DNA of 55,170 nucleotides, taken from positions 1 through 55,170 of the IMG/VR virus record IMGVR_UViG_3300025607_000090, one strand, 5' to 3'. Below are positions 8,623 to 55,170 of the stretch, one piece after another. The position numbers and the translations under genes were made by a program. The first letter of the stretch is position 1; every line of letters begins with the position of its first letter. Origin of the DNA: a virus (Duplodnaviria > Caudoviricetes). The notes under the pieces were generated by a model. The model did no database searches. It saw only the letters and a list, made by a program, of their open reading frames with translations, and was not told the DNA's origin.

Positions 8623-8674
8623 AGTTTAGAACACTAAACCGCGTTAAGTCAACATAAAGTTTAGTTTATTAAAC
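8623..8674 (-). promoter_or_regulatory. PL promoter with two CI operators (OL)
   Basis: GTTTAG-N4-CTAAAC at 8624-8639 and GTTTAG-N4-TTAAAC at 8659-8674; minus-strand TTGACT-18-TAAACT; the same palindrome occurs between cI and cro. Confidence 0.8.
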
Positions 8675-9030
8675 TTCTGTTTGGTAAAATGTATATTTAG
8701 TTATTTGTGAGGAGTAAAAAGTGTCACTAACGAAAGGTTGATGCGTGATTTGATTTAGACTAAAGGGAGAGGCGCAAAAAATTACAAAATTTTGGAATGA
8801 GAATAATAGCCTGCCAACTCAAAGAGAGCCGAGATATTATGAGACTATAAAGCAGTTATTTGGCTGAGGGTATGACCAGTTGAAATCACCGCCCTAACTC
8901 GGTACAAATCAGAACAAGGTGTGTCAATTCTTTTTTTCGACAAAGGGACCGTTAGAGAATGGGGTCCGGTGCAATAATAATATCAGCTCAGGACACGCAA
9001 AGTGGTTCTGACATATTTGCTCCCGGAGGG

Positions 9031-9739: not shown

Positions 9740-10240
9740 ATTTTCTCCTACAGCATCAATGCCATTTCAATCATATCTAAGTTATTCGAATATAACAAAG
9801 TTTACACAGCCATAGAACATTTCGATTATTATTTTTACACAATTTTATGATTAAATCATAAATGGCTACTTAGTTAAGTCAAACCAGACACTTTCAAAAG
9901 AAGATTTCAAATTTAATTTGGTTGCTTTAGAGCTGAAAAAGACAAAGATCTGAGACTCGAAAATACGGTCAATTTTTTTAATACGAATATGAATCGATCA
10001 AACAGATTAGTAATGTATTAGAAGAAGTACGGCGAACTAAACAAATGGCACAAACGGATTAAAACATCCCTAAGTCATTTTTGCGCGATAGCGTGTTAGA
10101 AATTCCAAGCCAAGTCTCATGTTCCGTGAAATGTCCTTTGATCGTGACTGCATAACAAGCTCAGCTCAAGGGCGCTAACCTTAACAAAACAGACTTCTAT
10201 ATAGACAAAGAGGCTTACCTCTTTAGCGGGGGTTTGAAGT

Positions 10241-10345
10241 GGTCAAATGAGCTATGCTTCAATCGTTGATACGATGAAGTACAGCCACTTTGCGCCTAAA
10301 CATTTAGATGATGCGATCAGGCTTAACCAGTTGAACACAAATTAA
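10241..10345 (+). pseudogene. C-terminal remnant of a P2/186-like integrase
   Basis: Translates to GQMSYASIVDTMKYSHFAPKHLDDAIRLNQ, resembling the GQ.SH...GH..I..TMRYAHFAP.HL..A..LNP end of P2/186/HP1 integrases with the middle deleted. Confidence 0.7.
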
Positions 10346-10448: not shown

Positions 10449-10471
10449 AAATGACTACACTTTGACTACAT
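10449..10471 (+). repeat. Direct repeat copy 1, AAATGACTACACTTTGACTACAT (arm-type integrase site-like)
   Basis: Tandem TGACTACA at 11-bp spacing; identical 23-mer at 11988-12010. Confidence 0.8.
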
Positions 10472-10500
10472 GGGTTAGGGCAGCCTGTGGTTGCTATGGT

Positions 10501-10584
10501 ATTTAACGCCCCTCTAATAAGTGAACCAAGGCTGGTATGACAGCCTTGGTGAATCTTAATTTAGAGGCTTGTGATCTGTTGGCT
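10501..10584 (-). repeat. attC-like integron cassette site (left array)
   Basis: Minus strand: R'' AGCCAAC overlapping the stop codon, CCTCTAA/TTAGAGG stem, ACCAAGGCTG/CAGCCTTGGT hairpin, R' GTTAAAT. Confidence 0.8.
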
Positions 10585-10807
10585 AGCCATTGCCGAATTC
10601 ATTACCTACAGCACCACCTGAATTGCCAGCCAAAACGTAAGACATATTGGTTTTGTTACAGTCAATCATTACACGACATGAAGGGCATTGCGCTTTATTG
10701 CCGCTAGTTGTTGCGGATTCAAATGTTGCAGTATCTCTAAAAAATATTGGAGAATTAAATCGATTTCCACATTTACATTTGATAAATGATTCTTTAATTT
10801 GGGTCAT
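10583..10807 (-). CDS. Small zinc-ribbon protein (cassette cargo); start moved to ATG 10807
   Basis: CKCG and CPSC motifs; AAGGA RBS; the longer start would lie inside the upstream attC. Confidence 0.7.
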   Translation of the reverse strand: MTQIKESFIKCKCGNRFNSPIFFRDTATFESATTSGNKAQCPSCRVMIDCNKTNMSYVLAGNSGGAVGNEFGNG

Positions 10808-10837
10808 TTCACTTTTCCTTGTTGATGATAAATTTGT

Positions 10838-10906
10838 TGCCAACGGCTGATTCATGATTAAACACAGCCAACTGTTTTTGTCCTTTTGAAAGACTTATAG
10901 TTAGCT
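10838..10906 (-). repeat. attC-like integron cassette site (left array, internally degenerate)
   Basis: Minus strand: R'' AGCTAAC containing the HNH stop, AAGTCTTTCAAAAGGACAAAAACAGTTGGCT arm, R' GTTGGCA complementary to the next cassette's GCCAAC. Confidence 0.65.
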
Positions 10907-11788: not shown

Positions 11789-11820
11789 GCAGCTAATATT
11801 TGTATATCAAACATGCTCAT
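11789..11820 (-). other. attI-like cassette entry site (left array)
   Basis: ATGAGCATGTTTGATATACAAAT-ATTAGCTGC; near-copy of 52088-52118; TTAGCTG complements the HNH cassette's R'' CAGCTAAC. Confidence 0.65.
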
Positions 11821-11987: not shown

Positions 11988-12010
11988 AAATGACTACACT
12001 TTGACTACAT
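11988..12010 (+). repeat. Direct repeat copy 2, AAATGACTACACTTTGACTACAT
   Basis: Identical to 10449-10471; both copies are followed by TAGGGCA..TGTGGTTG. Confidence 0.8.
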
Positions 12011-12061
12011 AGAACGTAGACATTGTGGCTTATTTTGATAGGGCATGTGGTTGGCTGTTTT

Positions 12062-12088: not shown

Positions 12089-12116
12089 GGCGGTTCAAGT
12101 CCCCCCGTCCACACCA
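12089..12116 (+). other. tRNA 3'-end fragment (tRNA-Leu-like att core), not a full tRNA
   Basis: GGCGG-TTCAAGT-CCCCC T-arm (one mismatch), 7-nt acceptor strand, ACCA end; no D or anticodon arm upstream. Confidence 0.75.
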
Positions 12117-12122
12117 AAATTA

Positions 12123-12155
12123 TAAAGCCCGTAACTCATTGAGTTACGGGCTTTT
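12123..12155. terminator. Bidirectional rho-independent terminator downstream of cI
   Basis: AAAGCCCGTAACTC-ATT-GAGTTACGGGCTTT perfect stem. Confidence 0.85.
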
Positions 12156-12222
12156 AGCTGTTTTTAGTCGCTTTGTGGCGTCAGGGGGTACGCTCCCTTC
12201 GTGAAATAGGTGTCTAAAATTT

Positions 12223-12873
12223 CTATTCCTGCATAAATGCGCCGATAACCAAGCCACAAACCTGGACCCCATCTTCGGGCTTTATTAGTTCATGCCTGTC
12301 ATTTAACGGTTTCAGGTATTGCTGGCCGCTTTCGTCTTCCATTAACTGCTTAAAAGTGCAGGCGCTACCAAGGCGGGCAACCACCCGCTGACCAGGCATT
12401 GCGCTTCGATCTGGATCTACAAAAATTATGGTGCCTTCTGGATAACTGCGCATACCTGGGAACGCTGCGGTCATCGAGTCGCCTTTAACTTGCAGCGCAT
12501 AAGTACGCGGACCGGCATTTCTTACCGGGCAGGGATAGTACTCGGTAGATTCATCCAACGGTGCTAATTGGCCTGCTTCACAAAAAGCACCGGCCTGAAT
12601 CCAACTGATTAAGGGAACTGGCTTAACATGAGGCACTGATATTGTATTTTCACTATCCACAGCCCTTGTTGGAGAGCCAGTGCCATAAAGCAACCAATCA
12701 GGATCAACGCCTAATACTTTACAAAGTAATATTAAATTTTTACCGCTAGGGTTTGCTGTGCCTTTTCTCCACTGGCTAATCGTACCTTTTGAGATACCTG
12801 TTTTATTTATAACATCAACGGAGCGGAGCTTTAACTCGCTCATTCTTTTAATTATGCGATCTGAAATATTCAT
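12223..12873 (-). CDS. cI: CI-like repressor (HTH plus S24 autopeptidase)
   Basis: HTH (GISKGTISQW), VPLISWIQAG cleavage site, GDSM and TFK catalytic dyad; ATG 12873 preferred over TTG 12882. Confidence 0.95.
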   Translation of the reverse strand: MNISDRIIKRMSELKLRSVDVINKTGISKGTISQWRKGTANPSGKNLILLCKVLGVDPDWLLYGTGSPTRAVDSENTISVPHVKPVPLISWIQAGAFCEAGQLAPLDESTEYYPCPVRNAGPRTYALQVKGDSMTAAFPGMRSYPEGTIIFVDPDRSAMPGQRVVARLGSACTFKQLMEDESGQQYLKPLNDRHELIKPEDGVQVCGLVIGAFMQE

Positions 12874-12874
12874 A

Positions 12875-12937
12875 GTTAACAATGCTAAACCTTTTTTGGT
12901 TTATTGTTATGGACTTATTGAGTTTAGACTGCTAAAC
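12875..12937. promoter_or_regulatory. OR operator region (three operators)
   Basis: GTTTAG-ACTG-CTAAAC (12922-12937), GTTAAC-AATG-CTAAAC (12875-12890), degenerate copy at 12899-12914. Confidence 0.8.
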
Positions 12938-12971
12938 TTTTTGGTAAATTAATGATTCGGCGGTAAGGGAA

Positions 12972-42604: not shown

Positions 42605-45600
42605 ATGACTACCAGAGCTGAATATTTAATTGAGCAAAACAACCAAGGTTTATTGACTGGACGAGAAAAGCAAATGTTCGACATCGCCGTTGAACGAGGA
42701 TTGATTAAGCCGCCACAAGTAGATACAGAAACCACAGAGTCAGAAGATAAAGGCGGCATGACGGCGGCTTTCGGTGCTGGTGTGGATAAAGTTCAGGAAC
42801 TTGGCTATCGTGCTGTCAAAGGCTTTACTGATGTTGGCGCTCCAGAAGAAGAACAAACAAACGTTGTTGGTCGCGCCATCGGACAGGGTGGGTCACTGTC
42901 TAAGTGGGCGCAAGAAGGTATCGATCGCAACATTGATGAACAAAAGGATTACGAACCAACCGTTGGATCTTATAAGGACGTAGACTCGATTAACGATGCT
43001 GGCTCTTATGTTGGTGAAATGGTTGCTGGCTCTTTGCCATATATGGCTGCTGCAGTGTCGGGTGTCGGTGCTTTTGGTATGGCTGGCGGTTTGTCAGAGG
43101 AAGCTTACGACAAACAGCCAGAAACAGAAAAGAACGCTGCTCGCGCCGTGGCGTCCGGTGCTGGTCAAATGGCGCTTGAGCGTCTTGGCATTAGAGGCTC
43201 AATGGGGCAAATTGGCAAAGACATTCTTAAAGATGGTGTATTAAAGACTGCTCAGCGCTATGGCAAGGGCGATCTTGTTGATGCAGTTAAAGATCCAAAC
43301 GTTGCCCGTCGTTTGCTTAAAGGTGCGACTTGGGAAGGCATGACGGAAACTGGCCAAGAAGCATTGGCCCAATGGGGCGCGGGTGCGTCACTTGATCAAA
43401 TTCATGGGCTAGATGAAGCATTTGTTGGAGGCTTTGTAGTTGGTGGTACTGTCCGTTCAGGAGCCGAAAGCGCTCAGCGCATTATCACTTGGCAACAAAA
43501 AGCGGGCGAAGTGGCCGAGAATGGTATTAACGCACTTGTTGAACAAGGTATACCTCAAGATCAAGCTATAGAACAGGTTCGAGCGCAAATTATTGAATCA
43601 GCGATAAAACAAGGGCAGAGTGAAGCTGTGGCAGCCGGTACCGCTGCTAGAATGATGAAAGAGCGTTATGGTATCGACCATGAAATATTTACCCCGGTAG
43701 CCAATGACGTTGCTGAGCAGCGCAGAGTTTGGGAGGAAAACCGCGATCAAAAAATGCAAGCGAACCGCCAGCGCTCTGAGCAAATGCGGGTAAAACATGA
43801 AACTCAAGATTTAGACGATGCACTTAATGGTGATTCGGCGCCAACAGTTGACGATCTTTTAGGTGATGCGGGTAACATTCAAGGCCCATTACCAAGCGAG
43901 CAAGTAGCGACTGAAATCGTAGAAGATGCTCCGTTATCCGTCAGCGAGCGTCGCGAACTAATGAATCTGCGCCTTGAGAAGCAACGAGTTGAAGGCGGTG
44001 TTGGTAGCATACAAGACAAGTTGTCTGAAAAAAGCGCGCCAACGGCAACTGATCTTATTGGCGAAGCAGGCTATGTTCAAGGTCCGGTACCGAGTGAGCA
44101 ATATGCTAATGTTCAAAACACAGTTGTTGATCCGTTTAATGGTGAGCAGTCAATAAAACCCACCGAGGAAAGCGCAGCTGTACCGCCAACGGTAGCGGAG
44201 CGCCGACAGGCATTGAATGATAAACTGGAAAAACAGCGAGTCGAGGGCGGCATTGGTGATGCTCAGCAGAAGCTTGCTGGAGACACTGCACCAACGGTTA
44301 GCTATTTACTAGGCGATGCTGGCCGCGTTAAAGATCCAGATGAAATAACTGATTACAACAATAGCGACGATAGTATATTAGCGCCGCCTGATATTCCGAT
44401 AATTAAATCAAACGAAGATAATAAAGCGCCCTCAATCGAGGGCGTTGTTGTTTCTGAAGGGGAATTACCAATAGATTTGGCAGAGAACTCTATTGGGAAG
44501 GTGGAGGCTCCGGTGCCAAGCTTAGAAACCAACAATAAAATTGATATAGCGGCGCATGAAGCTGCTACTAGCCCAACGAATGACCAGGCTGAACCAAGCC
44601 AGGCGCAAAAGGATGCTGGCAATTATAAAATGGGGCGTATAGAGCACAGCGGCTTTAAAATTGGTATAGAAAACCCACAAGGTTCAACGCGCTCGGGTCA
44701 AGACAAAGGTGGAAAGGATTGGTCTGTGACCATGAAATCACACTATGGCGACATCACTGGCACCAAAGGGGCTGATGGTGATGCGTTAGATGTGTTTGTT
44801 AAGCCATCAACTGAGCATAGCGATAAAGTATTTGTGATTGATCAAATAGAGCCAAGTAATGGCAAGTTTGATGAACATAAGATCATGATGGGCTATGACT
44901 CTAAAAAAGAAGCTCAAGAGGCATATTTAGCTAACTACGGTAAGGACTGGCAAGGTATTGGTAACATTACCGAGTCACCGATCAGTGAGTTTAAAGATTG
45001 GGTTAAAAACGGCGAAACGACAAAACCATTTACGGTCACGCCTCAGCCAGGCTCTAATCAGGCTAAAATCGATAATTTGTCCAGTAGCTTAGAAACCAAG
45101 CAAGCTGACAACAGCGTAGTATCCTATAAAAGGGAAGTCGCCAGCACTGTCATTCGCACAGGTAATAAACCCATCAAAGGCATTAGCCTTGTCGAGGCCA
45201 AAACCATTGCTAAAGAGTTTATGGATGAATACAACGGAAATATCAAACTAGCTCCCATTGTTATAAAGAATCAAGAGGATATTTATGGATCAGAGGGAAC
45301 TGCAGAAAAATTCGGAGTGCTCAAAGGTGCGTACCATGGCGAACAAGGCGTATTTACCCTTACCGCGAGTAATCTGTCAAATAGGGCTGACGCGCGAGAA
45401 ACGCTACGGCATGAAATACTCGGTCACTACGGTTTGGACACGTTTAAAAAAGCAGATAAACAGGCTGTTATCGACAAAATAATTGCATCAGAGAATGAGC
45501 CAAACCTAAAAGTCATTTGGGGTAAAATTAAAGCCGATAGCCACTACAAAACATTAACACCTGAACTTCAAGCCGAAGAAGTGTTTGCGCACATAATAGA

Positions 45601-48565
45601 AAATCATCGCAATGGCTTTCAGCGCATTTATGATCGAATCATTGCATGGTTAAAGCAAGCAATGCGTAAGGCAGGGTTAAATAAGTACCCATCATCAGTT
45701 AGCGAACTTCACCGCCTAGCTGAAACTATTTCCAAGCAGATTAAACAGGGCAAGCAAGGTCGAGCTCAGTCGTTAGGATCTAGTAGTAAAACCCCTGAGC
45801 AAAAAAAAGAATCGACCATGTTGCGCAGGGCTACCGAAAATTCATCAATAGCAGACGAAGAAAAATATTCTAAAGATTACTTTATTCGCCGCGTTCAAGA
45901 CAAATTCCAGCGTCTACTTGTTATCCAGCGTTCTTTAGCCGTCAACGAAGATAACGACGCTTACATGGCAGAGGAGGCCTTTCACGGAAAAGTAAGTGAG
46001 GATTTGCGAAAACTAGAGCTCGAGCGTACAGATAAGATAGCTAACACCATGGCTAAGCATCAATTATCACAAGATGAAGTTGATTTATACTTAATTGCAA
46101 AGCACGCCAAAGAGCGTAATGCTTATATCGATACCATCAATCCAGAACTAAAAGGCGAAGGCTCAGGCATGAGCAATGAGCAGGCGCAATCGATTTTAGA
46201 TAAGGCCATTTTTGAAGAAAAATACCCCGCACTAGAAGCTGTCTCGGATTTGGTTTATTCGATGCTTAAGCAAAACCGAAAAATGATGGTTGAGTTTGGC
46301 CTTGAAGCGCAGGATGCGATCGATAACTGGCAATCTCAATATAAGTTTTATGTACCGCTAAAAGGTTACGCTAAAGATGAAGAAACCCACGCTAAGGATG
46401 ACAACGGTAAACAAGTAACACGCTATGGTGCTGGCAAGGGCTTTAACATTAAAGGTCGCGAAACCATAAAGGCGATGGGGCGTCGTTCTTTAGCTGAATC
46501 GCCGTTGCTTCATTCCATCCAAGATACGACTCAAGCGATTATTCGCGCACGTAAGAATGAGGTTGGTAATACTTTCCTAAAATTAGTAAACGACAACCCA
46601 GATAGCGATTTATGGGAAGTGTTTACCGCCCAAAAGCCAGACATAACGCGTGGCGAAATAACTAAGGACGGTAAAGCAACAATCGGTCCGGTCAAGATGA
46701 CAGCAATGGCCATGAAAAACAGTGATGATTATTTCAAGGTTAAAGTTGATGGAGTGGAGAGTTACATCAAAATTAAAGATGTTGTGCTCAAAGATACTAT
46801 GGCCAACTTAGGTGTTGACGAAATGGGAGCCTTTGTTAGGAATATTGGAAAGGTTACACGAACACTAAGCGCTTTAGTTACAACTTGGAACCCTGAATTC
46901 ATGCTGACTAACTTTACGCGCGACGTTCAAGCGGCGGTTGCTAATGTATTAGCTGAAACTCAAGTCGCCGATGGCAAGGCACTTAATACTGAAAATCTGG
47001 CGCGCAAGATGGTTGGATCCATGCCTAAGGCGATGGTGGTTTTACGCCAGGGATTCAGAAACAACAAGTTTGATGGCAGCGGTAAGTTTAATGATCCTAA
47101 ATGGAGTAATTACCTAAAAGAATTCCTCGAGTCTGGCGCTAAAACTGGCTGGGTTAATCAAAAAGACGTTAAGGAATTGGCCAGCGAACTCAAAAGCTCA
47201 ATATCGCGCGCGAGCAAGACTAAGGCTGGTAAGGTTCGGCGCCTTGGTAAAAACGTCGCAGATTTTGTTAGTGACTATAATGATATCGTTGAAAACTCGG
47301 CACGTTTTAGTGTTTATTACCACGCCAGAGAGCAGGGTATAAGTGTAAAGCAAGCCAGTAGCTTAGCCAAAAACTTAACGATTAACTTTAATCGTAAAGG
47401 TGAAATGGGCGCTACGATGAATGCCCTATACATGTTCTCGAATGCCAGCGTTCAAGGTACGGCTAATATGTTACGCGCACTGGGTACCCCAAAAGACAGA
47501 TCTAAGTCGATGTGGGATCCTAAATTCTACAATTTATCGCAAAAATTGGCCGTGGGTTCGATTTTTGGCACGATTGCCATGGCACAAGTCATGCGAGAAA
47601 TGGGCGGTGATGATGAAGATGGCATTGCATTTTACGATAAGGTACCCGATTACGTTAAGGCAACCAATTACGTGATTATGACAGGTGGTAAGGATTACAT
47701 AGCGATACCAATGCCCTATGGCTATAATTTTTTGGCAGGCTTGGGTCATTCTTTAGATGGTTTAATTCAAGGCGAGTCAGTGGGAAGGCAAGCGACCAAA
47801 ATAGCATTGTCGGCGGTTGGTACCTTTTCTCCACTAGGTATTACAGAATCTGAAAATACGGCAGTATCAATGGTTAAAATGGCGGCTCCGACCGTTATAA
47901 AACCATTCGTTGAAATGGCCGTAGACGAGAAGTTTACCGGCGGGAATATCTACCCTGATCAGCGTGGCTACAATGTTAAAAAAGCCGATGCCAATCGTGG
48001 GGGTAAGCATACTTGGGAGTGGTCTAAAAACTTTACTTCTTGGCTAAATGAAGCCAGCGGTGGTACTGAATATAAAAGCGGAGGCATGGATATTGCGCCT
48101 CAGTCTATTGATCACATGGTTAAGTTTATGGGGGGAGGTGTATTACAGTTCGGGTTGCGCTGGCAGAACTTAGCTGCCAAGGCTATGGCAGGGAAAGAAA
48201 TTGAATCCCGAGACATTCCTTTTTGGCGGCGCTTCCATAAGCAGTTAAATCCTAAGCAAACGATTGGCGAATTCTATGATGTTAAAGAAAGTTTAGCGGC
48301 TTACAAAGCTGATTTAAATTACATGCGCGGTGCTGACCGGGCTAATTATCTATCAAAGTACAGAAATCATCTGATGTTAAATAATTACGCTTCTGGTATC
48401 GATAAGCAATTACGCGCACTTAATAAGCGAAAGCGGGGCATTGAAGCTAGCCGTTTATCAGATAATGAAAAAGAGATAAGCTTGCAGCGTATTGAAGATC
48501 TAAAAATTGACCACACTATGCGCTTCGCCAAGAAACGCCATCAGTTGGGAGTTAAGTATCTTTGA
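42605..48565 (+). CDS. Large polyvalent / ejection protein (inorganic pyrophosphatase-like, zincin HExxxH, LPD38-like C-terminus)
   Basis: GNYKMG...IENP.GS.RSG...HYG...GADGD.LDVF...FDEHK; LRHEILGHYG..AEE; VPDY.K..N....IPMPYG. Confidence 0.85.
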   Translation: MTTRAEYLIEQNNQGLLTGREKQMFDIAVERGLIKPPQVDTETTESEDKGGMTAAFGAGVDKVQELGYRAVKGFTDVGAPEEEQTNVVGRAIGQGGSLSKWAQEGIDRNIDEQKDYEPTVGSYKDVDSINDAGSYVGEMVAGSLPYMAAAVSGVGAFGMAGGLSEEAYDKQPETEKNAARAVASGAGQMALERLGIRGSMGQIGKDILKDGVLKTAQRYGKGDLVDAVKDPNVARRLLKGATWEGMTETGQEALAQWGAGASLDQIHGLDEAFVGGFVVGGTVRSGAESAQRIITWQQKAGEVAENGINALVEQGIPQDQAIEQVRAQIIESAIKQGQSEAVAAGTAARMMKERYGIDHEIFTPVANDVAEQRRVWEENRDQKMQANRQRSEQMRVKHETQDLDDALNGDSAPTVDDLLGDAGNIQGPLPSEQVATEIVEDAPLSVSERRELMNLRLEKQRVEGGVGSIQDKLSEKSAPTATDLIGEAGYVQGPVPSEQYANVQNTVVDPFNGEQSIKPTEESAAVPPTVAERRQALNDKLEKQRVEGGIGDAQQKLAGDTAPTVSYLLGDAGRVKDPDEITDYNNSDDSILAPPDIPIIKSNEDNKAPSIEGVVVSEGELPIDLAENSIGKVEAPVPSLETNNKIDIAAHEAATSPTNDQAEPSQAQKDAGNYKMGRIEHSGFKIGIENPQGSTRSGQDKGGKDWSVTMKSHYGDITGTKGADGDALDVFVKPSTEHSDKVFVIDQIEPSNGKFDEHKIMMGYDSKKEAQEAYLANYGKDWQGIGNITESPISEFKDWVKNGETTKPFTVTPQPGSNQAKIDNLSSSLETKQADNSVVSYKREVASTVIRTGNKPIKGISLVEAKTIAKEFMDEYNGNIKLAPIVIKNQEDIYGSEGTAEKFGVLKGAYHGEQGVFTLTASNLSNRADARETLRHEILGHYGLDTFKKADKQAVIDKIIASENEPNLKVIWGKIKADSHYKTLTPELQAEEVFAHIIENHRNGFQRIYDRIIAWLKQAMRKAGLNKYPSSVSELHRLAETISKQIKQGKQGRAQSLGSSSKTPEQKKESTMLRRATENSSIADEEKYSKDYFIRRVQDKFQRLLVIQRSLAVNEDNDAYMAEEAFHGKVSEDLRKLELERTDKIANTMAKHQLSQDEVDLYLIAKHAKERNAYIDTINPELKGEGSGMSNEQAQSILDKAIFEEKYPALEAVSDLVYSMLKQNRKMMVEFGLEAQDAIDNWQSQYKFYVPLKGYAKDEETHAKDDNGKQVTRYGAGKGFNIKGRETIKAMGRRSLAESPLLHSIQDTTQAIIRARKNEVGNTFLKLVNDNPDSDLWEVFTAQKPDITRGEITKDGKATIGPVKMTAMAMKNSDDYFKVKVDGVESYIKIKDVVLKDTMANLGVDEMGAFVRNIGKVTRTLSALVTTWNPEFMLTNFTRDVQAAVANVLAETQVADGKALNTENLARKMVGSMPKAMVVLRQGFRNNKFDGSGKFNDPKWSNYLKEFLESGAKTGWVNQKDVKELASELKSSISRASKTKAGKVRRLGKNVADFVSDYNDIVENSARFSVYYHAREQGISVKQASSLAKNLTINFNRKGEMGATMNALYMFSNASVQGTANMLRALGTPKDRSKSMWDPKFYNLSQKLAVGSIFGTIAMAQVMREMGGDDEDGIAFYDKVPDYVKATNYVIMTGGKDYIAIPMPYGYNFLAGLGHSLDGLIQGESVGRQATKIALSAVGTFSPLGITESENTAVSMVKMAAPTVIKPFVEMAVDEKFTGGNIYPDQRGYNVKKADANRGGKHTWEWSKNFTSWLNEASGGTEYKSGGMDIAPQSIDHMVKFMGGGVLQFGLRWQNLAAKAMAGKEIESRDIPFWRRFHKQLNPKQTIGEFYDVKESLAAYKADLNYMRGADRANYLSKYRNHLMLNNYASGIDKQLRALNKRKRGIEASRLSDNEKEISLQRIEDLKIDHTMRFAKKRHQLGVKYL

Positions 48566-48625
48566 TGGAGTTACAATTAAATTGTTTGGAGAAAGCAAGC
48601 TGCCGTTAAAGGGATTAAGCAAAGA

Positions 48626-48946
48626 TTAATTTGTTAGTTTTTGTTTACTCATAAGTTTTTTGATAAGAAATATTGGCGAGTAAAAAACGTATAGAGCAAT
48701 CAGTCCGCTAAATATAAACCATGGAATTTCTATTACGTACACTATATTGCCAGCAAAGCCTGAGTTGAATATGTAGCAGCTTGCTATAAAGCTGCTAGAT
48801 AAGGTGTAAAGAAAAATACGCTTTTCAGGGTTGTTTATCACCCTATTGATTAGCCAGCCAAACAGGATATAAGTGAGCAACATTACTATTACGCGCAAAA
48901 GCGCCTTAGAGCTGACATAAACAATTTTAGTCTTTTCCCTATTCAT
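48626..48946 (-). CDS. Three-TM membrane protein (moron, possible superinfection exclusion)
   Basis: Hydrophobic, AT-rich, convergent with the ejection gene. Confidence 0.55.
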   Translation of the reverse strand: MNREKTKIVYVSSKALLRVIVMLLTYILFGWLINRVINNPEKRIFLYTLSSSFIASCYIFNSGFAGNIVYVIEIPWFIFSGLIALYVFYSPIFLIKKLMSKQKLTN

Positions 48947-49118
48947 CGTACTTTTTCTAATACTAAACTGATATCAAAGCAACCAGAAAATGCATGTTGT
49001 AAGTGAGCCACCAAGATACAACACCAAAATTAGAATATTCTATTTATTTAACACATTGTTTGTTATAGATTATTAGTATAATCTAGTATGAATTATGAAA
49101 TGTCGGATCTCGGGGTTA

Positions 49119-49149
49119 TCGAGCAATTCGACTAATATACTGTTATACG
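49119..49149 (+). other. attI-like cassette entry site (right array, first)
   Basis: GAGCA-N16-GTT; GACTAAT-ATACT-GTTATAC simple-site layout; TATAAT at 49077 upstream. Confidence 0.6.
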
Positions 49150-49162
49150 TTTTAGGGGCTAT

Positions 49163-49582
49163 ATGATTTCAATATCTCAGAAAATAAGAACATTGTTTGA
49201 ATTAGGCGGGGAGAAAATTGATCTTCCTTACTTTTCTGGGTTTCCAAGAAATGCGTGTGAGGGAGCATCACTATTTCTTGGCGCTACTCTAAAAGAAATA
49301 TTTCCAATGTCTCATATAGAGTATCTGAAAGGATATGATGAAAACGGGGCTATTCATTTTTGGCTAGAAGTTGACGCTAAGGTTTTCGATATCACAGCGG
49401 ATCAGTTTCCTGAAATACCAGAACCACTTTTTGGAGTTGCTCATCAACCTTTAGCTGAAATTTATCGTGATATTGAAAGGAAAGAAATAACTGATGCGCT
49501 CAGAGAATCTGATGTGACAACAGAAACATATAAACATTCGCTAATGATGGACATTAGGCATTATTTAAGCATAAACGTATAA
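49163..49582 (+). CDS. Cys-His-Asp (transglutaminase/papain-like) protein (cassette cargo)
   Basis: FPRNAC, HFWLE and DITADQF motifs. Confidence 0.75.
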   Translation: MISISQKIRTLFELGGEKIDLPYFSGFPRNACEGASLFLGATLKEIFPMSHIEYLKGYDENGAIHFWLEVDAKVFDITADQFPEIPEPLFGVAHQPLAEIYRDIERKEITDALRESDVTTETYKHSLMMDIRHYLSINV

Positions 49583-49623
49583 ACAAAAACCTCAATCGTA
49601 CGGCTTTTAGGTTGGTGTTAGGT
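49577..49623 (+). repeat. attC-like site 1 (very short)
   Basis: GTATAAAC-AAA-AACCTCAA...ACGGCT..TTAGGTT-GGT-GTTAGGT; stop codon inside R''. Confidence 0.75.
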
Positions 49624-49657
49624 TATTACCAGATTAATTCACTTTAAGGGGAAATAC

Positions 49658-50116
49658 ATGAGTTGGACTTTTGAGAGCATAAAAACATCACTCGAAGAAA
49701 TGACGTTTGAACTAGATGATGAGAAAAGTTGTTCTAATGGAAGAGTAGTTAAGAGTAATTATTTGCCGCTTTCTAAAGATGTAAATGAAGTTAATACCGT
49801 CGCATCATACATTTATGGCGAAGACAACGTTAATGCTGATTTGATACAGCTTTCAGCTAGTAAAGGGAATAAAAATGATTTAAGTGAAACTGAATTAAAT
49901 TTTTATGCGCTTGTAAAAAAAATAACCTCACTTTTTGCTGATACAGATTTTAATCTTCCTGACATATTTAATTTGGGTTCTGAAGATTTCTTAGTCGGTA
50001 ATTACACATTACGAGTTGATAATGAAGAAAACCAATGTAATGCTTTTATCGCACTGTCGAGTTCTTTTGAGCAGGCAATGGATGTTCGTTCAAGACACTT
50101 ATATTCCGCAGAGTAA
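49658..50116 (+). CDS. Acidic hypothetical protein (cassette cargo)
   Basis: AGGGG RBS; bounded by GTTAGGTTATT and AATAACCTAGC. Confidence 0.75.
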   Translation: MSWTFESIKTSLEEMTFELDDEKSCSNGRVVKSNYLPLSKDVNEVNTVASYIYGEDNVNADLIQLSASKGNKNDLSETELNFYALVKKITSLFADTDFNLPDIFNLGSEDFLVGNYTLRVDNEENQCNAFIALSSSFEQAMDVRSRHLYSAE

Positions 50117-50119
50117 ATA

Positions 50120-50221
50120 ACCTAGCAAGAACCTAAACCAGACGGCTAGAACTATCACACTTTTAGCAACAAAGACGCAAAAAACTGCGCCAGCACGTCG
50201 CAGGTTAGGTTGGCGTTGCGG
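50120..50221 (+). repeat. attC-like site 2
   Basis: Near-copy of 50994-51094; AACCT/AGGTT stem; GACGCAAAAAACTGCGCCA shared. Confidence 0.85.
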
Positions 50222-50399
50222 CTGGATAATTTATAGTTTTGTTTAAAACAGGTAAAAAACGAGCTCCTGTAACGCAAAATAAGCGACGCACTCAGTGTGG
50301 GTAATACATTTTATACCCTTATTTTGACGTGTTTTTGTAATTTTTTATAAATTCTACAGCCTTATAGTTAGCTGCCAATGTTTCAGCAGTTCACTACTA

Positions 50400-50879
50400 C
50401 TAAATTTTTACAAATTTAGATGGGTCCGAATTAACTATGGTGTTTATTGTTGATTGAGGTTTTCTGTAATCACTTGCAAGCATATCTTGAGTGACGTCAG
50501 TGCTACCGTGATACGCGTGATAAATCTCCTTTTTTTCATTATCGTTTAATTTTTCTTTACGTGTAGGTAAATCTGAAAAACGACTTTTTACAGCTTTATC
50601 AAAGGTTGCTGCTGTTTCAATTGTTTTCTCTACAGCTCCTATATTTTTAGTTATCTCCATAACCTGATTCCAATTCTGCTCGCGTGAATACTTGCGTAAT
50701 TGTCGGTTTAGATCGTCATTTAGTATTACGGCATGTTGTTTTAGTTCACGTGCCGATTTTTTTATTTTTGCTTCTTCAGAAGCAGAAAGTTCTTCTTGGT
50801 TAATTTGTTCAAAGCGTTGATTTACTACTTCAGGGTTTAGTAAACTAGAAGGGTTGTTGGGGTCAAATAGTCCGCTCAT
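50400..50879 (-). CDS. Coiled-coil protein with C-terminal HTH, inverted inside a cassette
   Basis: TQDMLASDYRKPQSTINTIV HTH-like; lies between GTTAGCTGC (50367) and GCAGCTAAC (50992). Confidence 0.7.
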   Translation of the reverse strand: MSGLFDPNNPSSLLNPEVVNQRFEQINQEELSASEEAKIKKSARELKQHAVILNDDLNRQLRKYSREQNWNQVMEITKNIGAVEKTIETAATFDKAVKSRFSDLPTRKEKLNDNEKKEIYHAYHGSTDVTQDMLASDYRKPQSTINTIVNSDPSKFVKI

Positions 50880-50899
50880 TGAATTTCTCTCTAATAAAT

Positions 50900-50923
50900 T
50901 GATAATCTGATATCAGGTTATCA
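50900..50923. promoter_or_regulatory. Imperfect palindrome upstream of the HTH gene (candidate operator)
   Basis: TGATAATCTGA-TA-TCAGGTTATCA. Confidence 0.5.
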
Positions 50924-50993
50924 GAAATCAGATTGCTGTCAAATTATATTTAACAATCAGTTGGTCAGCGAATTTATTCATGAGAGAGTAAGC

Positions 50994-51094
50994 AGCTAAC
51001 AAGCACCTCAACTAGACGGCTAAAGCTGTCACATTTTTTAGCAAAGAGACGCAAAAAACTGCGCCAACACGCCGCGGTTAGGTGGGTGTTAAGC
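50994..51094 (+). repeat. attC-like site 3 (best preserved)
   Basis: R'' AGCTAAC, CACCTCAAC/GTTAGGTG L-box stem with an extra C, central hairpin, R' GTTAAGC. Confidence 0.9.
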
Positions 51095-51140
51095 ATTCTA
51101 CGCTTGTTTCAACAAACGTAATTTAAATGGGAATTGAGTA

Positions 51141-51881
51141 TTGAAATTTAAAGATATAAAACCTGAAGTTTTAGGAGTGATTTATGGCCTTCTTGTATTA
51201 AACCTCTGGTATGTATCCTCATTGGCAATAGAGCACAGAATTGTGCCAAGTACATACGACTACTTTTTGCAAGCTATTGTAGTATTGTCTGCAGCATTTT
51301 TCGGTTCCTTTTCTGCATTCTATTTAAACACCAGAAAAGAAAAACTTGGGAAAATACAAGGGAATATTTCCGCATTAAACTCTGCTCTGTTTTTAACGCT
51401 AAGGCAAATAAATGCTCTGTTAAATCTAAAAAAAGCAATAGAGCCTCTAGAAAGTGACAATATACGGTTTCTAAAGTTACCAGCAATGTATGCTGCGGAT
51501 TATAGCGATTTAAAAATAGAGTTAAATCGCTTGGAATTTTTGCTAAAAGACCACCCAAATTTATTGTTAAATTTATCTATTGAGCAAGGGAGGTTCGAAA
51601 ATGCAATTCGAATTACCAATATGAGAGCAGAATTCCATCACGAAGATCTGCAGAAATCTCTAAACGATAATAACTTTTGCATTGAGCATCCCTCTCTTGA
51701 AGAATTAGTTACAGCAGTAGGCCCTAGAGTGGTCGGTAACGCAATTAAACTTACCGATGGTATGTATGAACAAATATTTTTAAGTGTCGACAGTTTAACT
51801 GAGGTTCACGAAAGACTTTTTGAAATAGCAAAAGAGAACTTTCCAAATGAGCGATTCGTTAAATTTCAACAAAATGCCTAA
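51141..51881 (+). CDS. Two-TM membrane protein with helical cytoplasmic domain (cassette cargo)
   Basis: TTG start; bounded by GTTAAGCATT and AATGCCTAAT with the stop inside R''. Confidence 0.75.
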   Translation: MKFKDIKPEVLGVIYGLLVLNLWYVSSLAIEHRIVPSTYDYFLQAIVVLSAAFFGSFSAFYLNTRKEKLGKIQGNISALNSALFLTLRQINALLNLKKAIEPLESDNIRFLKLPAMYAADYSDLKIELNRLEFLLKDHPNLLLNLSIEQGRFENAIRITNMRAEFHHEDLQKSLNDNNFCIEHPSLEELVTAVGPRVVGNAIKLTDGMYEQIFLSVDSLTEVHERLFEIAKENFPNERFVKFQQNA

Positions 51882-51931
51882 TAAGAAGCTCAACCAGACG
51901 GCTAACCCCACCTAAAAAGGTAGTGTTACTG
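51876..51931 (+). repeat. attC-like site 4 (left arm, truncated)
   Basis: GCCTAAT-AAGAA-GCTCAACCAGACGGCTAA matches the left arms of sites 2 and 3. Confidence 0.7.
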
Positions 51932-52087
51932 CTTTGGGGATACATTCTGACAAGCTCATTTATTGATTGATATCGAATATGGCTCATATATCAGTGCAAC
52001 TCACAAGTAATGCTTGCCATAAGTGACATAAGAGTTCATTTTGTAACGCTAATTTACAGGATTTCTGCGTATATCTAAAATAGGTAA

Positions 52088-52118
52088 ATGAGCATACCTG
52101 TTATACAAATGTTATGCC
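52088..52118 (+). other. attI-like cassette entry site (right array, second)
   Basis: ATGAGCATACCTGTTATACAAAT-GTTATGCC; near-copy of minus-strand 11789-11820. Confidence 0.7.
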
Positions 52119-52136
52119 TAAGGAAGTTAATCACGT

Positions 52137-53891
52137 ATGAATCAAGATTGGATTCTCCAAAAAAAAGAGACTCGTCGCACTTTTTCAAAATCAACTTGGG
52201 TTCCTTTGAGAGCTGCTTTTGGTAACGAAAAAGGTAACGTTAAAAAGATAGGTTATACAAACGAATTTTTTGGATGTGGTTCTGTTGCATTTTCTCCGGA
52301 TCATCGCGATATCGCGGAAAAATTGAGTTGGAGTGATATCGGAATCAGCTCAACTATCGGTCCATATGCATACGAAGATGGCTACTACTCAACCATAGAT
52401 GAATATCAATATCATGATAAAGAGCCGATCGGTGTTCATCTCGTCCTTGAATTATCTCTACCTGTAGTCGGTGGGCGACAATGGACATTGACCCCTGATC
52501 TTGTTGCTGCACTCCGCCTCATAAAAGAGGGAGATAATTGGGTAAGGCCGGAAGAAAATTTTGTAGTAGTGGCTCGGGAAGTTCTTGATGAAAAAGGTGA
52601 TCAGCGCCTGATCGAAATCAAGAGAGAATTTCTTCTCGACTATTTAGCTGCTAGGAACCTAGCTCTCCGACTTTCTTACTACCGTCAACGAGTGGAAAAT
52701 GTAACCGCTCTTGAAACCAGTGAATACGCTGACTTGGAAAACCATCAAGAAGAGCGCGATGATGGACGATATGAGTTACTGATTCGTGATGTAAATGACG
52801 TTTTTGGCGGAAGCTGGGCGATGTTCCGTGCTTGGCGAACTGATGTTGATGAAGATGAAGACGCACCGGTGATGGGACGAGAAAATAACGAAAACACTGA
52901 TTATGAAAAATCTGAGGGAACTCGTGGTGGGTTTCATGGCGTACGAGTCGAGGGCGAGTTTTGGCGCGATGAATGGATAGAGCACAAAGGCGTAAGTAAT
53001 CGCGTTCGTGGGGATGTAGACACAAACTTGCCTCAATTTATAGTTGAGACTGATGGCATGCGTTTGGCGTCTGCCGAGTTAAACAACGAAGATGTTGGTC
53101 GGTGGCTCTGGTTTCGCTCAGGTATAGTAAATGAGCTTCTAGGGCTTCGCGGATTTTCTCTCAATTGGTATACGGCACAAACAGGTGAAATTAAATCCAC
53201 ATCTGGGTATTCAATTCATATTGGTATAAATATTTCAGATTTAATAACAGTCTACGCCTATGACATTGCTCGCCTGCCGGCTTGGGAACAGCATATTTGG
53301 GCAGCTCAGAATGTTGTTCCTGATGGAAAGGTTTCAAATGAATTATTAGCAGCACAGGTTAAAGCTGAACCTGCCTCTACCCATGCGGTTGAGGAGCTTC
53401 TTTTCAAGGTGATGGAGATGCTTGAGGGCGGGTTTAGGCAGACATTCAATGTTTCACTTTACTCACATGATCTAGATCGCACTGAAACTGAAAAGTATAT
53501 CTCCCGTTTCGCGAGCAAGGATCAAGCATCATTGCTGAGATTGGCAAAAGAGCTAGTTCGTGTTTTTTCCGACCGGCTTGATGTACGTGAACTTCGAAAA
53601 CTATCAACACACTTAAATAAGGATAAATTGGGCTCAAATAAGCTCCTGCAGGATGTACTTGCTCAGAAAGTTGGCGCTGATAAGGCCCGGGAAGTCTTTG
53701 GCCCAATTGTGGGGGCGTATGATATGCGAATAGGTGACGCTCACCCTACTAGCTCCAAGATTGGAGATGCTTTGAAGCTCGCTGGAATCGACGATAGTGA
53801 GTCATTTTTGCGACAAGGTGAGCAATTGATTTCCAATTTTAGCCAATCGATTTGGTGGGTTGGGAAACTACTATTTGAAGAACCAGAGTGA
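52137..53891 (+). CDS. 584-aa protein with C-terminal RxxxxH (HEPN-like) motif (cassette cargo)
   Basis: Helical C-terminus with LGSNKLL...YDMRIGDAH; bounded by GTTATGCC and GGCATAA. Confidence 0.7.
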   Translation: MNQDWILQKKETRRTFSKSTWVPLRAAFGNEKGNVKKIGYTNEFFGCGSVAFSPDHRDIAEKLSWSDIGISSTIGPYAYEDGYYSTIDEYQYHDKEPIGVHLVLELSLPVVGGRQWTLTPDLVAALRLIKEGDNWVRPEENFVVVAREVLDEKGDQRLIEIKREFLLDYLAARNLALRLSYYRQRVENVTALETSEYADLENHQEERDDGRYELLIRDVNDVFGGSWAMFRAWRTDVDEDEDAPVMGRENNENTDYEKSEGTRGGFHGVRVEGEFWRDEWIEHKGVSNRVRGDVDTNLPQFIVETDGMRLASAELNNEDVGRWLWFRSGIVNELLGLRGFSLNWYTAQTGEIKSTSGYSIHIGINISDLITVYAYDIARLPAWEQHIWAAQNVVPDGKVSNELLAAQVKAEPASTHAVEELLFKVMEMLEGGFRQTFNVSLYSHDLDRTETEKYISRFASKDQASLLRLAKELVRVFSDRLDVRELRKLSTHLNKDKLGSNKLLQDVLAQKVGADKAREVFGPIVGAYDMRIGDAHPTSSKIGDALKLAGIDDSESFLRQGEQLISNFSQSIWWVGKLLFEEPE

Positions 53892-53912
53892 TATGAATAA
53901 CCAGTTCAGCGG

Positions 53913-53963
53913 GCATAAGGCAATATAGTCAATCGGACGGCTAAAGCTGTCGCTGCGTTAATT
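53913..53963 (+). repeat. attC-like site 5 (degenerate)
   Basis: GCATAA(GG)C-AATAT-AGTCAATCGGACGGCTAAAGCTGTC shares GACGGCTAAAGCTGTC with site 3. Confidence 0.7.
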
Positions 53964-54135
53964 CTCATAGTTCCCATACAAACCCTAATGCCTAAACCAA
54001 CATTGGCACGATAAATTCTATGGCGCTTTATGCCCCATAACGCCTTAGGCTGAAACATTAATTATGCAGGATGAATGTGCTTGTAATCCATTGTGTGTAA
54101 ACTGTCGGTTAACTCGCATTAACTGACGTAAAACA

Positions 54136-54819
54136 ATGAAAAATCTATTCTTAGTATTTCTGCTTGTGCCGACGCTAGCATTCGCAGCAGATCCATTGAG
54201 CTTTGGCCGGGCTAAAACTCAACTTAAAAAAATTTACAAAGCCGCGCCGGAGTCATTCTATTGTGGCTGTGATATAAAATGGCTGTCAAAAAAGAAGTTA
54301 GTGCCGGTTTGGAACTCATGTGGTTTTAAGCCGCGTAAACAACATAAACGCGCCTCTCGCATCGAATGGGAACACGTAGTTTCAGCATGGGAGTTTGGGC
54401 ATCAACTACAATGTTGGCAGAACGGTGGTCGTAAAGCATGTAAAAAGGTTACTGCGTTTAAAGCCATGGAAGGAGATTTACATAACTTGGTACCTGCGAT
54501 CGGTGAAGTGAACGGTGACCGCTCAAATTTCAGGTTTAATATGATCTCCGGTGAGAAGCGTGTTTATGGTCAATGCGATGCTGAAGTTTATTTTAAGGGG
54601 CGAGTATTTGAACCAGCGCCAAATGTGCGCGGCGACATAGCCCGGACGTACTTTTATTTTTCGCAGCAATACGGATTGAAGATCAGCAAGAAACAGCGAC
54701 AGCTATTTACGGCTTGGAACAAATTAGATCCAGTTGACGCCAGTGAATGTTTAATTCACGATAAAAAAGCGCGAGTGCAGGGGAATGTTAACCCGTTTGT
54801 AGAAAATAATTGTAACTAG
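54136..54819 (+). CDS. endA: Endonuclease I family secreted/periplasmic DNase (EndA/Dns/Vvn-like)
   Basis: Signal peptide (AFA), [45 protein letters not shown]. Confidence 0.93.
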
Positions 54820-54840
54820 AATTAATAGGGAAATGAAAGT

Positions 54841-55170
54841 ATGGCATGGGAAGTTGTTTTATATTTGATCAGTGGTGCTATTTTGGGTCTTTTGATCCAT
54901 CAGGCAGTTATGTATGGGGCATGCTATCTGTTTGATTCAACAACAGCTGAAAGCTGTGTTTTGTTTAGTATCGTAATATTGATGTTAATAGTTGGTTTTA
55001 AATTTAATTTTTCTTTACAGCAATTTTTCTTCACTATACAAGAAACTGATAAATCAGAATATGGCTTCGTTGCTCCATTATTCGTTATGGTTAAATATTT
55101 TGGATTTGTTGCTAGCGCGGGGTTAGGCATTAAATCTTCACATACCTATTTCTTTCGGAGTCCAATGTAA
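54841..55170 (+). CDS. Three-TM membrane protein
   Basis: Hydrophobic ORF ending at the window edge. Confidence 0.55.
   Translation: MAWEVVLYLISGAILGLLIHQAVMYGACYLFDSTTAESCVLFSIVILMLIVGFKFNFSLQQFFFTIQETDKSEYGFVAPLFVMVKYFGFVASAGLGIKSSHTYFFRSPM

Follow-up and report, generated by a model that had tools for sequence, protein, structure and literature searches.

Probable decay of attC sites in integron fragments carried by a lambda-like provirus record

Does a temperate phage hold on to captured gene cassettes by destroying the recombination sites through which they could leave? This question is raised by the IMG/VR provirus record IMGVR_UViG_3300025607_000090 (Duplodnaviria; Caudoviricetes), all 55,170 bases of which were analyzed here and are referred to as the window. 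The record carries two clusters of integron cassettes with attC-like recombination sites. An initial annotation, made from the letters alone, proposed that the R'' box is altered in six of these sites, that the cassettes are thereby locked into the phage, and that selection against excision or an unusual insertion mechanism is responsible. The data discussed below suggest a plainer answer, which we hold with moderate confidence, i.e., ordinary decay of integron fragments in a provirus, with cassettes becoming stuck as a by-product and not by selection. Many of the cassettes are probably immobile.

Phage cassette arrays are a route by which the large and mostly unknown gene stock of chromosomal integrons can move between cells. 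The record adds a clear case, in which a lambda-like prophage holds an array within its immunity region, and this array is linked to an attC family and to islands of the host.

Integron fragments and their attC sites

The attC sites were called with a family-specific covariance model (R1), built from an alignment of 26 full-length attC sites from host genomes (Psychrobium/Shewanella group; see below). RNAalifold did not recover the attC fold on either strand, and the consensus bottom strand was folded with DNA parameters, which gave a textbook attC hairpin (-25.7 kcal/mol). With this structure 84% of the cells in the alignment are paired, compared to 35-43% with the partners slid. The model was run over the window with filters off, and seven attC-like sites were examined, A to E in the right cluster and F and G in the left.

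The right cluster opens with attI-like element a, followed by four cassettes ending in sites A to D. Next come an attI-like core (b), a gene for a 584-amino-acid (aa) protein and site E, and then the endonuclease I gene and one more open reading frame (ORF). The features, in which G002 and similar handles denote host genomes and C55 and the like their contigs, are:

48626-48946, minus strand: 106-aa ORF between the tail-fibre gene and element a, with no family match and no relatives
49041-49145, plus strand: attI-like element a, 79% identical to G002:C55, the homology ending at GTTA
49576-49625, plus strand: attC site A, short, after a 139-aa ORF (49163-49582); R1 16.1 bits, E 0.15
50118-50223, plus strand: attC site B, after a 152-aa ORF (49658-50116); R1 91.5 bits
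50171-50362, plus strand: 3' half of site B together with a 145-nucleotide (nt) element that opens the next cassette, multi-copy in host arrays
50992-51096, plus strand: attC site C, intact; R1 93.4 bits, R box fully paired, fold z -2.2
51877-51906, plus strand: site D, an orphan 5' arm after a 246-aa ORF (51141-51881); nhmmer model positions 4-33, E 0.008
52090-52114, plus strand: attI-like core b, GTT at 52111-52113, 23 nt before the 584-aa ORF (52137-53891)
53913-54055, plus strand: site E, a family 5' arm fused to a copy of a dispersed host repeat; R1 19.6 bits, E 0.019 (53913-54033)
54136-54819, plus strand: endonuclease I gene (Pfam Endonuclease_1, E 1.5e-41; best host match 60% aa identity in 301 genomes)
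within 54136-55170, plus strand: 109-aa ORF, the stop codon of which ends on the last base of the record (...AATGTAA)

The left cluster is a two-cassette unit read on the minus strand, and includes the following features (L082 and similar handles denote collected loci):

10449-10471 and 11990-12012, minus strand: 23-nt direct repeat with two TGTAGTCA units, flanking the two-cassette unit
10499-10579, minus strand: attC site F; R1 29.4 bits, E 5e-5; hairpin z -4.5, R box unpaired
10583-10855, minus strand: 90-aa cassette ORF, no family match
10866-10906, minus strand: site G, a 5' arm left over from the attC that belongs to the 292-aa cassette, identified by alignment to an intact 99-nt attC in L082
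10901-11779, minus strand: 292-aa cassette gene, with Cys/His motifs that are HNH-like by eye
11794-11818, minus strand: attI-like core c, with a conserved leader reaching to about 12012
12089-12161, plus strand: 3' end fragment of tRNA-Leu(GAG) (29 nt, 12089-12117) and terminator (12124-12161), matching the host locus G003:C325 in a metagenome-assembled genome (MAG)

No integrase with an IntI domain lies beside the arrays, and neither is therefore a complete integron. The integron integrase model TIGR02249 had no match in the record, and a tblastn search with host IntI for remnants returned only a weak match on the phage integrase (E 0.19). In the right cluster, several attC sites lie on the plus strand within a few kilobases (B and C above 90 bits, A and E weaker); the left cluster holds F together with the remnant G. 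Both clusters are integron fragments without an integrase, each begun by an attI-like site, and belong to the attC-site clusters that have no integron integrase (CALINs).

The AAC/GTT core is intact in two of the seven sites, A and C. Site C (AAC 50998-51000, GTT 51088-51090) bears out its initial description as intact. A 1-nt insertion had been taken as damage to the R'' box of site A, a claim that did not survive: R'' reads TATAAAC (49578-49584), its AAC (49582-49584) pairs with GTT at 49617-49619, and the spacers measure 5 nt each. The broken pairs of site A are confined to the outer four of the R box, and in arrays the outer R-box letters belong to the next cassette, as given by the crossover point. 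Over 32 nt, the 5' arm of site A shares 94% identity with a host site.

In two other sites, B and F, one change breaks the AAC/GTT pairing. The R'' box of site B reads AGC (50124-50126, such that GCT replaces GTT on the bottom strand), opposite an R' GTT at 50215-50217. In site F, the R' box GTTAAAT is located at 10507-10501 and the R'' triplet in register is CAC (10573-10571), with an AAC 7 nt further out (10580-10578). The letters here, GCCAAC and then AGATCAC (10577-10571), had been read as a 7-nt insertion; they are as described, but CAC in register is the simpler reading, and the two are indistinguishable here. According to the recombination data of Frumerie et al. 2009 for attCaadA7, one unpaired triplet position lowers attC x attI recombination from 2.2e-3 to 6e-6. 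Since B and F each carry such a triplet mismatch, they are probably poor substrates.

The remaining three sites, D, E and G, have no pairing 3' arm. The AAT in the R'' box of site D (51880-51882) is present as described, and 25 of 27 letters match a host 5' arm, but the damage goes beyond R'': there is no complementary 3' arm and no full-site R1 match. Site E does carry the two additional letters of the proposed GG insertion (R'' CATAAGGC at 53914-53921), but two extra letters are found in each arm and still pair (AAGGC with GCTTT), and nhmmer sees the 5' arm only. A search of the window for the family 3' arm found A, B, C and one chance match, and no orphan 3' arm anywhere, which identifies D and E as orphan 5' arms. 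In site G, the TAT insertion (10899-10897) is real relative to L082, but it stands directly after an intact AGCTAAC, and the greater damage is the lost 3' arm. Only the first ~45 nt of the L082 site are kept, ~78% identical by eye apart from TAT. The L082 attC folds canonically (-22.1 kcal/mol), while G reaches only -1.3 or -4.5 kcal/mol and was not found by R1. A complete 41-nt mini-attC at this position (AGCTAAC ... GTTGGCT) was considered and ruled out, as L082 shows G to be the 5' part of a 99-nt site.

Taken site by site, R'' and R' pair in A and C, and fail to do so in B, F, D (AAT without a partner) and E (AAGGC with GCTTT); in G, AAC is present with no convincing partner. The L''/L' box with its extrahelical base and 5-nt spacers is found in A, B, C and F (model alignment), is missing in D and G, and is doubtful in E. 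The letters first described for B, D, E, F and G are all present where they were placed. The count of six altered R'' boxes, in contrast, has to be lowered: AAC is absent at the aligned R'' position in four of the seven sites, and three of the seven are damaged well beyond R''.

Comparison with chromosomal attC sites

How often is R'' altered in chromosomal integrons of the same family? The model R1 was run over 28 host loci (221,609 bases from nine genomes), yielding 52 matches at E <=0.01, 26 of which are the training sites. Integron integrases scoring above the family cut-off are present in G142, G198 and G002, in G142 and G198 beside arrays of this attC family. This adjacency indicates that the host sites come from real integrons, at least in those genomes. 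In 10 of 51 readable host sites R'' is not AAC (12 of 51 if two ambiguous sites are included). Five of these are of the TAT or TAC type, AAT, AGC, ATC and GAC occur once each, and L052 has both triplets different. The R' box deviates from GTT in 4 of 49 sites, and at least four matches in the host arrays consist of the 5' arm only.

That the changes seen in the window are a feature of the phage is not supported. Both AGC (L049:95-192) and AAT (L057:9803-9908) are found among the host sites, and metagenomic relatives of the 292-aa cassette have AAT in R'' (L085) and ATT in R' (L083). Roughly one-fifth of the chromosomal attC sites of this family already lack the canonical R'' triplet. This is a usable baseline, and its size implies that "damaged" sites in a mobile element are not readable as adaptation without such a control.

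Nor is it supported that R'' is hit specifically. Of the 18 positions at which site B departs from the host consensus, a single one is in R''; among the 18, one falls in an invariant column (the central A of AAC) and two fall in columns conserved to at least 90%. Site C, which is intact, departs from the consensus at 17, of which two are in invariant columns and one is in a 90% column, and D, E and G lost whole arms. Changes spread over the sites were named in the initial annotation as the mark of neutral decay, and this is largely what is found. The comparison of cassettes with integron copies that it called for is available for one cassette; it confirmed the TAT insertion relative to L082 but did not single out R''.

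One-sided Fisher tests against 10 of 51 give p 0.051 for four of seven sites, p 0.076 for three of five (model matches only) and p 0.027 for four of six. With 12 of 51 as the baseline, p is 0.08-0.11. The count of six of seven, which is not accepted, would give p 0.001.

Several observations weigh against decay as the full explanation. The non-canonical share of R'' boxes is higher in the window (4/7, 4/6 or 3/5) than in the hosts (10/51), one of the five Fisher tests has p 0.027, and the sample is too small to exclude a real R'' excess in the phage. Because the models that detected the host sites had been trained on good ones, the baseline may lean to intact sites. In the hosts too, R'' is hit more often than R' (10/51 versus 4/49); this difference is not significant (p 0.15), has the same direction as in the window, and is unexplained by pure neutrality. 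Moreover, all ten cassette ORFs examined are open, which also fits selection to keep cargo, and only one cassette, that of the 292-aa protein, can be compared with copies elsewhere.

Often, R'' and the stop codon of the cassette gene overlap, and this might have a bearing on the difference between R'' and R'. In many of the 75 metagenome loci with relatives of the 292-aa protein, the stop codon lies inside the R'' box (GCTAAC) and is followed by a GTTAG-type R'.

The 292-aa cassette and the origin of the left cluster

The gene for the 292-aa protein is very widespread as a cassette, with relatives in 75 metagenome loci (L082-L156; 47-95% identity) and no Pfam, NCBIfam or confident PADLOC family match. 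Compared to four close loci, the ratio of nonsynonymous to synonymous substitutions (dN/dS) is 0.06-0.13 at a dS of 0.28-0.60, and the gene is under strong purifying selection. Given a dN/dS of ~0.1 and a dS of ~0.3, drift is expected in flanks that are not selected. At such a dS an unselected triplet would be likelier hit than not. Nucleotide homology to L082, L083, L085 and L150 begins exactly at TTAGCTG (window position 11796). In L082 an upstream attC ends in ...GGCG just before TTAGCTG, and the 99-nt attC is kept after the gene. By its letters, this start of homology reads as the signature of a cassette boundary.

On its other side, the left module continues into the tRNA-Leu fragment and terminator, which are 90% identical to the tRNA 3' end and 95-100% identical to the terminator at G003:C325. 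The fragment lies 60 nt from the cI stop codon. The contig G003:C470 carries the whole 320-nt left module, the tRNA-Leu junction included, at 75% identity. This continuity suggests that the left cargo was acquired in one piece from the tRNA-Leu end of a host island, and not cassette by cassette. The 23-nt repeat has a 22-nt exact match in the host locus L185, beside a tRNA-Leu fragment, and could represent arm-type sites of the island integrase or part of the attI-like leader. Relative to the host tRNA-Leu locus, ~60 nt between two CACCAA repeats are absent in the window. Rfam and tRNA scans of the window returned nothing, and ARAGORN found no whole tRNA.

Together, the data are consistent with the following scenario. 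A provirus would carry integron fragments, each an attI-like site followed by cassettes, without an integron integrase. The left fragment would have passed from host to phage as a block, with the host-island end joined to the tRNA-Leu fragment; the right fragment or fragments, after the tail-fibre gene, would be phage cargo or else host flank taken in by the provirus caller. As nothing in the phage would maintain the recombination sites, they would drift and rearrange while the cassette genes stayed under purifying selection. The outcome would be the mixture seen here, with two working-looking sites, two with one AAC/GTT mismatch and three without a 3' arm. Of this scenario, the data show the anatomy, the block structure, the baseline in hosts and the divergence of gene relative to flank; loss of function at single sites, passage from host to phage and neutrality are inferred.

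In this scenario the idea of locked cassettes is probably correct for part of the arrays. Several sites are probably poor or dead substrates (the mismatched B and F, and D, E and G with no 3' arm). However, the arrays are not uniformly locked, because A, C and two attI-like GTT sites are intact. Judging from the mode of excision, a host IntI could release the first cassette via element a and attC A, and cassette B together with the next one via attC A and attC C.

attI-like elements

Each cluster opens with a conserved element that ends at G|TT, where homology to other copies stops. There are three such cores of two sequence types, two with GTT and one with ATT. In element a, GTT is located at 49142-49144 and the first cassette starts at 49143; the element aligns over its last ~35 nt with the stretch that separates intI from the first cassette in G198:C117 and in G142. 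Cores b and c share 20 of 25 letters and are the sole matches to their pattern in the window (2 versus 0.00 expected). Matches to core c with its 200-nt leader are found in G002:C322 and G003:C470, and also, split into two blocks, beside intI in G002:C154. As initially described, core c has ATT (11797-11795), where two homologues have GTT. We refer to these elements as attI-like because they resemble intI-adjacent sequences and because a similar end, ...TAATAAAATGTT, is seen in the Shewanella attI that Qi et al. quote. Scanning IMG/VR with the patterns of two cores yielded 27 loci and 1 locus, none with extended similarity or a nearby attC, as expected by chance.

A contig of a related prophage, G002:C55 (L077, 1-8610), carries an attI-like element and three cassettes joined to ORFs that are spanin-like by eye and to terS/terL. 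Its attC matches are at 1032-1135 and 2367-2453, and its terS and terL homologues are 52% and 76% identical to those of the window at the aa level.

Alternative explanations

Could selection have favored cassettes that cannot be excised, and R'' been altered repeatedly for this reason? The absence of AAC at R'' in four of seven sites compared to 10 of 51 in hosts (p ~0.05) would be accounted for, as would B and F, where the sole core defect is in R'' and the R' GTT is intact. The cassette ORFs are intact, one of them under strong purifying selection, and a triplet mismatch reduces recombination ~370-fold in the data of Frumerie et al. 2009. However, the same R'' variants occur in chromosomal arrays adjoining intI genes, B carries its differences along the entire site, D, E and G lost whole arms, and A, C and the two attI-like GTT sites are intact. 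Excision, moreover, requires IntI, and the phage has none. We consider selection of this kind improbable. The initial annotation also proposed scars of an atypical insertion mechanism. One such mechanism, in which IntI would have put single cassettes into secondary (non-attI) sites of the phage DNA, is very improbable. Creation of CALINs at secondary sites is among the origins discussed by Cury et al. 2016 (PMC4889954), and one upstream junction reads ATT. Yet both clusters begin with attI-like sequences that resemble intI-adjacent sites and not phage sequence, and the left cluster is flanked by the 23-nt direct repeat and a tRNA fragment. With strand exchange at R', insertion at a secondary site would leave the cassette's own attC whole, and neither R'' changes nor orphan 5' arms would be expected, whereas the downstream attC of the 292-aa cassette is truncated. 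Neither selection against excision nor an unusual insertion mechanism is thus supported.

Another possibility is that the phage keeps orphan attI sites as landing pads, at which host IntI, induced by the SOS response, would insert host cassettes during prophage induction, with the old cassettes decaying distally. The gradient from intact to decayed attC sites would be the trace of this process and the ATT of the left site a dead pad, and the cassettes would be carried to new hosts. The three attI-like cores each stand directly before a different cassette, two of them with GTT, and homology of the window to host and prophage copies stops exactly at G|TT. The cassette beside element a has the intact attC A, and the sites further along are worse. 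The element shares only ~105 nt with G002:C55, which is the size of an attI and not of a random fragment. This activity is, however, predicted from the letters, and the G002 evidence comes from one 8.6-kb MAG contig. The turnover of cassettes could predate capture and have taken place in chromosomes, the left module arrived in one piece together with its tRNA-Leu junction, which points to the capture of an array already assembled, and the IMG/VR scans for two of the cores gave matches at chance level. On balance we find active landing pads unlikely. If they were real, temperate phages would actively sample the cassette banks of chromosomes and need no integrase of their own to do so, and interest in the locus would rise sharply should the attI-like sites prove active with a host integrase. 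Decay of captured integron fragments remains our preferred explanation of the seven sites.

Phage anatomy and the right boundary

The record is rated 100% complete by CheckV. It is bounded by the stop codon of the integrase at its start and the stop codon of the last ORF at its end, bounds that are typical of computed, gene-trimmed provirus calls. Features of the phage outside the clusters include:

1-1323, minus strand: phage tyrosine integrase, not an integron integrase (Pfam Arm-DNA-bind_2, Phage_integrase and SAM-like domains)
8623-8675, no strand: two palindromic sites (8623-8640 and 8658-8675) resembling left operators (OL), upstream of the early-left operon; pattern AGTTTAG-N5-TAAAC
12223-12882, minus strand: cI-like repressor (Pfam HTH_3 and Peptidase_S24)
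12921-12938, no strand: site resembling a right operator (OR), with the same AGTTTAG-N5-TAAAC palindrome

The minus-strand early genes reach up to 8468 and include those for the integrase, SSB, RdgC, Dam, a YqaJ-type exonuclease and RecT. The rightward genes extend to a 1986-aa tail-fibre-like ORF that ends at 48565. The operator palindrome gives six strand-matches in the window (three sites, both strands) versus 0.34 expected, and since these palindromes read as OL- and OR-like operators, the region 8.7-12.2 kb lies inside the immunity region. The left cluster, between the operators and cI, is thus truly internal to the phage.

An integrase, early-left genes, an S24 repressor, operators, terminase homology to the Psychrobium MAG G002 and a gene order like that of lambda identify a lambda-like temperate phage. 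Tail and terminase genes of G002 are 65-76% identical to those of the window, and its integrase, 75% identical, is located 8 nt from tRNA-Ser(GGA). A 19-nt core common to B and C has real matches in Shewanella atlantica, a Psychrobium MAG and a Psychrobiaceae MAG (3 of 20 loci returned, the other 17 by chance). In these three hosts the whole sites match at 85-91% identity, and the attC family has a match in 20 of 301 genomes sampled from the host order. The window is therefore most plausibly the provirus of a marine gammaproteobacterium of the Psychrobium/Shewanella group, an assignment that shares the moderate confidence given to the decay scenario as a whole. In IMG/VR, the tail-fibre protein has 3 loci (<=56% identity) and cI 10 loci (<=46% identity), none near enough for a comparison of ends, and the 106-aa ORF and the integrase have none. 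A megablast of 49000-55170 and 14001-39000 against the phage database had no match, and no sequencing runs containing 45500-55170 are listed.

The right cluster is less securely placed. It is a serious possibility that ~48.6-55.2 kb are host chromosome beside the prophage, included since the provirus caller met only unannotated genes, and that the left cluster alone is in the phage. The boundary is computed and the record ends at stop codons. Its last letters, AATGTAA (55164-55170), are what precedes the C of R'' in two host attC sites, which start AATGTAAC, and the array may therefore continue past the record. Judged from these letters, the last ORF may be a cassette gene with its attC cut off by the record boundary. 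The right region also holds the dispersed host repeat of site E (23 matches listed), the multi-copy host element after site B (9 matches) and an endonuclease I gene with counterparts in 179 of the 301 host-order genomes; the G+C content falls from 0.43-0.47 to 0.35-0.37. On the other hand, the left cluster, equally low in G+C, shows that modules of this kind are indeed carried by the phage, CheckV completeness is 100%, and in G002 terS/terL homologues are linked to a homologous attI-like element with three cassettes (one MAG contig). An attR derived from the 3' end of the tRNA-Ser beside the G002 integrase was also sought and rejected; no 12-mer of it occurs in the window, and no attR is seen before the cluster. 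The endonuclease I search in 301 genomes (best match 60% identity) does not settle the right boundary.

Relation to known phage-borne integron fragments

CALINs carried by phages have already been published, among them one that has an attI of its own and lies in a Shewanella prophage. In the parts of their study that bear on this locus, Qi, Rajabal, Ghaly, Tetu and Gillings (Qi et al. 2023, Front Microbiol, PMC9892861) describe CALINs and integron fragments in phage genomes, with 17 phage CALINs. The CALIN of Shewanella prophage M16-3 opens with its own Shewanella-type attI and is flanked by tail, capsid and terminase genes. As in these cases, the window has attC arrays without an integron integrase inside a temperate phage or prophage record, and the ends of its three attI-like cores resemble that of the quoted M16-3 attI (...CTAATAAAATGTT). 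It differs from the cases as described there in that the record is without any intI, has three attI-like cores of two types and has one array in the immunity region, between operators and cI. The functional temperate phage Va_90-11-286_p16 of Vibrio anguillarum, also described in PMC9892861, captured part of the sedentary chromosomal integron of its host, a likeness to the window. According to that description, Va_90-11-286_p16 resides within the integron of its host, carries intIA and uses two attC sites for its excision, whereas the integrase related to that of the window points to a tRNA site and no intI was captured. The sedentary chromosomal integrons of Shewanella and Psychrobium have the same attC family as B and C (85-91% identity). 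They are chromosomal and have an integrase, while the arrays in the window are short, composite and partly truncated.

In the definition of Cury et al. 2016 (PMC4889954), a CALIN comprises two or more attC sites without a nearby intI, and loss of intI, rearrangement and secondary-site insertion are proposed as origins. As quoted from that work, 95% of CALINs have no recognizable intI pseudogene nearby. This is true also of the window, where the sites were called with a family-specific model and not with IntegronFinder. No study of R'' integrity in phage-borne attC sites turned up in the literature, in which no search was aimed at it.

The positions of the two clusters are reminiscent of lambdoid morons. 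In lambdoid phages, morons lie between cI and OL, as rexAB does, and between the tail fibres and att. The left cluster occupies what we take to be the rexAB position of lambda, and the right cluster likewise follows the tail-fibre gene. The cargo of the window consists of integron cassettes without an assigned function, in contrast to the known exclusion genes of lambdoid morons. In the G002 prophage, to judge from the one MAG contig, the cassette cluster would precede the lysis genes and would thus represent a third moron position.

Other features of the clusters

The 152-, 246-, 584- and 90-aa proteins have no homologue in G002, G003, G198, G142 or G035, and the 152-aa protein has none in the metagenome contig scan. 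Twelve proteins in or beside the clusters (ten cassette ORFs and the 123-aa and 227-aa ORFs) had no match among the loci collected earlier. PADLOC and NCBIfam searches with the ten cassette proteins gave two weak PADLOC matches only (E 0.003 and 0.009), which are not trusted. A 35-aa peptide (10238-10342) that by eye resembles an integrase C-terminus was dropped, as it has no Pfam match and no similarity to the phage integrase. Overlapping the 106-aa ORF before element a, 48889-48964 is 79% identical to G003:C88.

The segment 50171-50362 has 9 matches of 80-94% identity in G002 and G003. Its first 145 nt after attC B (50218-50362) may be a conserved non-coding cassette leader; the host copies always begin right after R' as TTGAGGCT..., and the cassette ORF that follows attC B (159 aa, 50400-50879) is on the opposite, minus strand. 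The distal part of site E (~53955-54055) is the dispersed host repeat, found in G002, G003 and G198 among the matches listed. This element is ~80-100 nt long, the listed matches are 79-91% identical, and several are on long contigs away from known arrays. In G198:C53 a repeat of this type directly follows an attC site. It may be an element like a repetitive extragenic palindrome (REP) or a miniature inverted-repeat transposable element (MITE), or a cassette start.

The left cargo region also contains a 208-aa ORF (9113-9739, minus strand) with no family match. The encoded protein has an N-terminal hydrophobic stretch and twice a motif like KQPDGL.KWCK.C, and the repeat is also apparent in the DNA as a 60-nt direct repeat (9125-9184 and 9254-9313, 77% identical).

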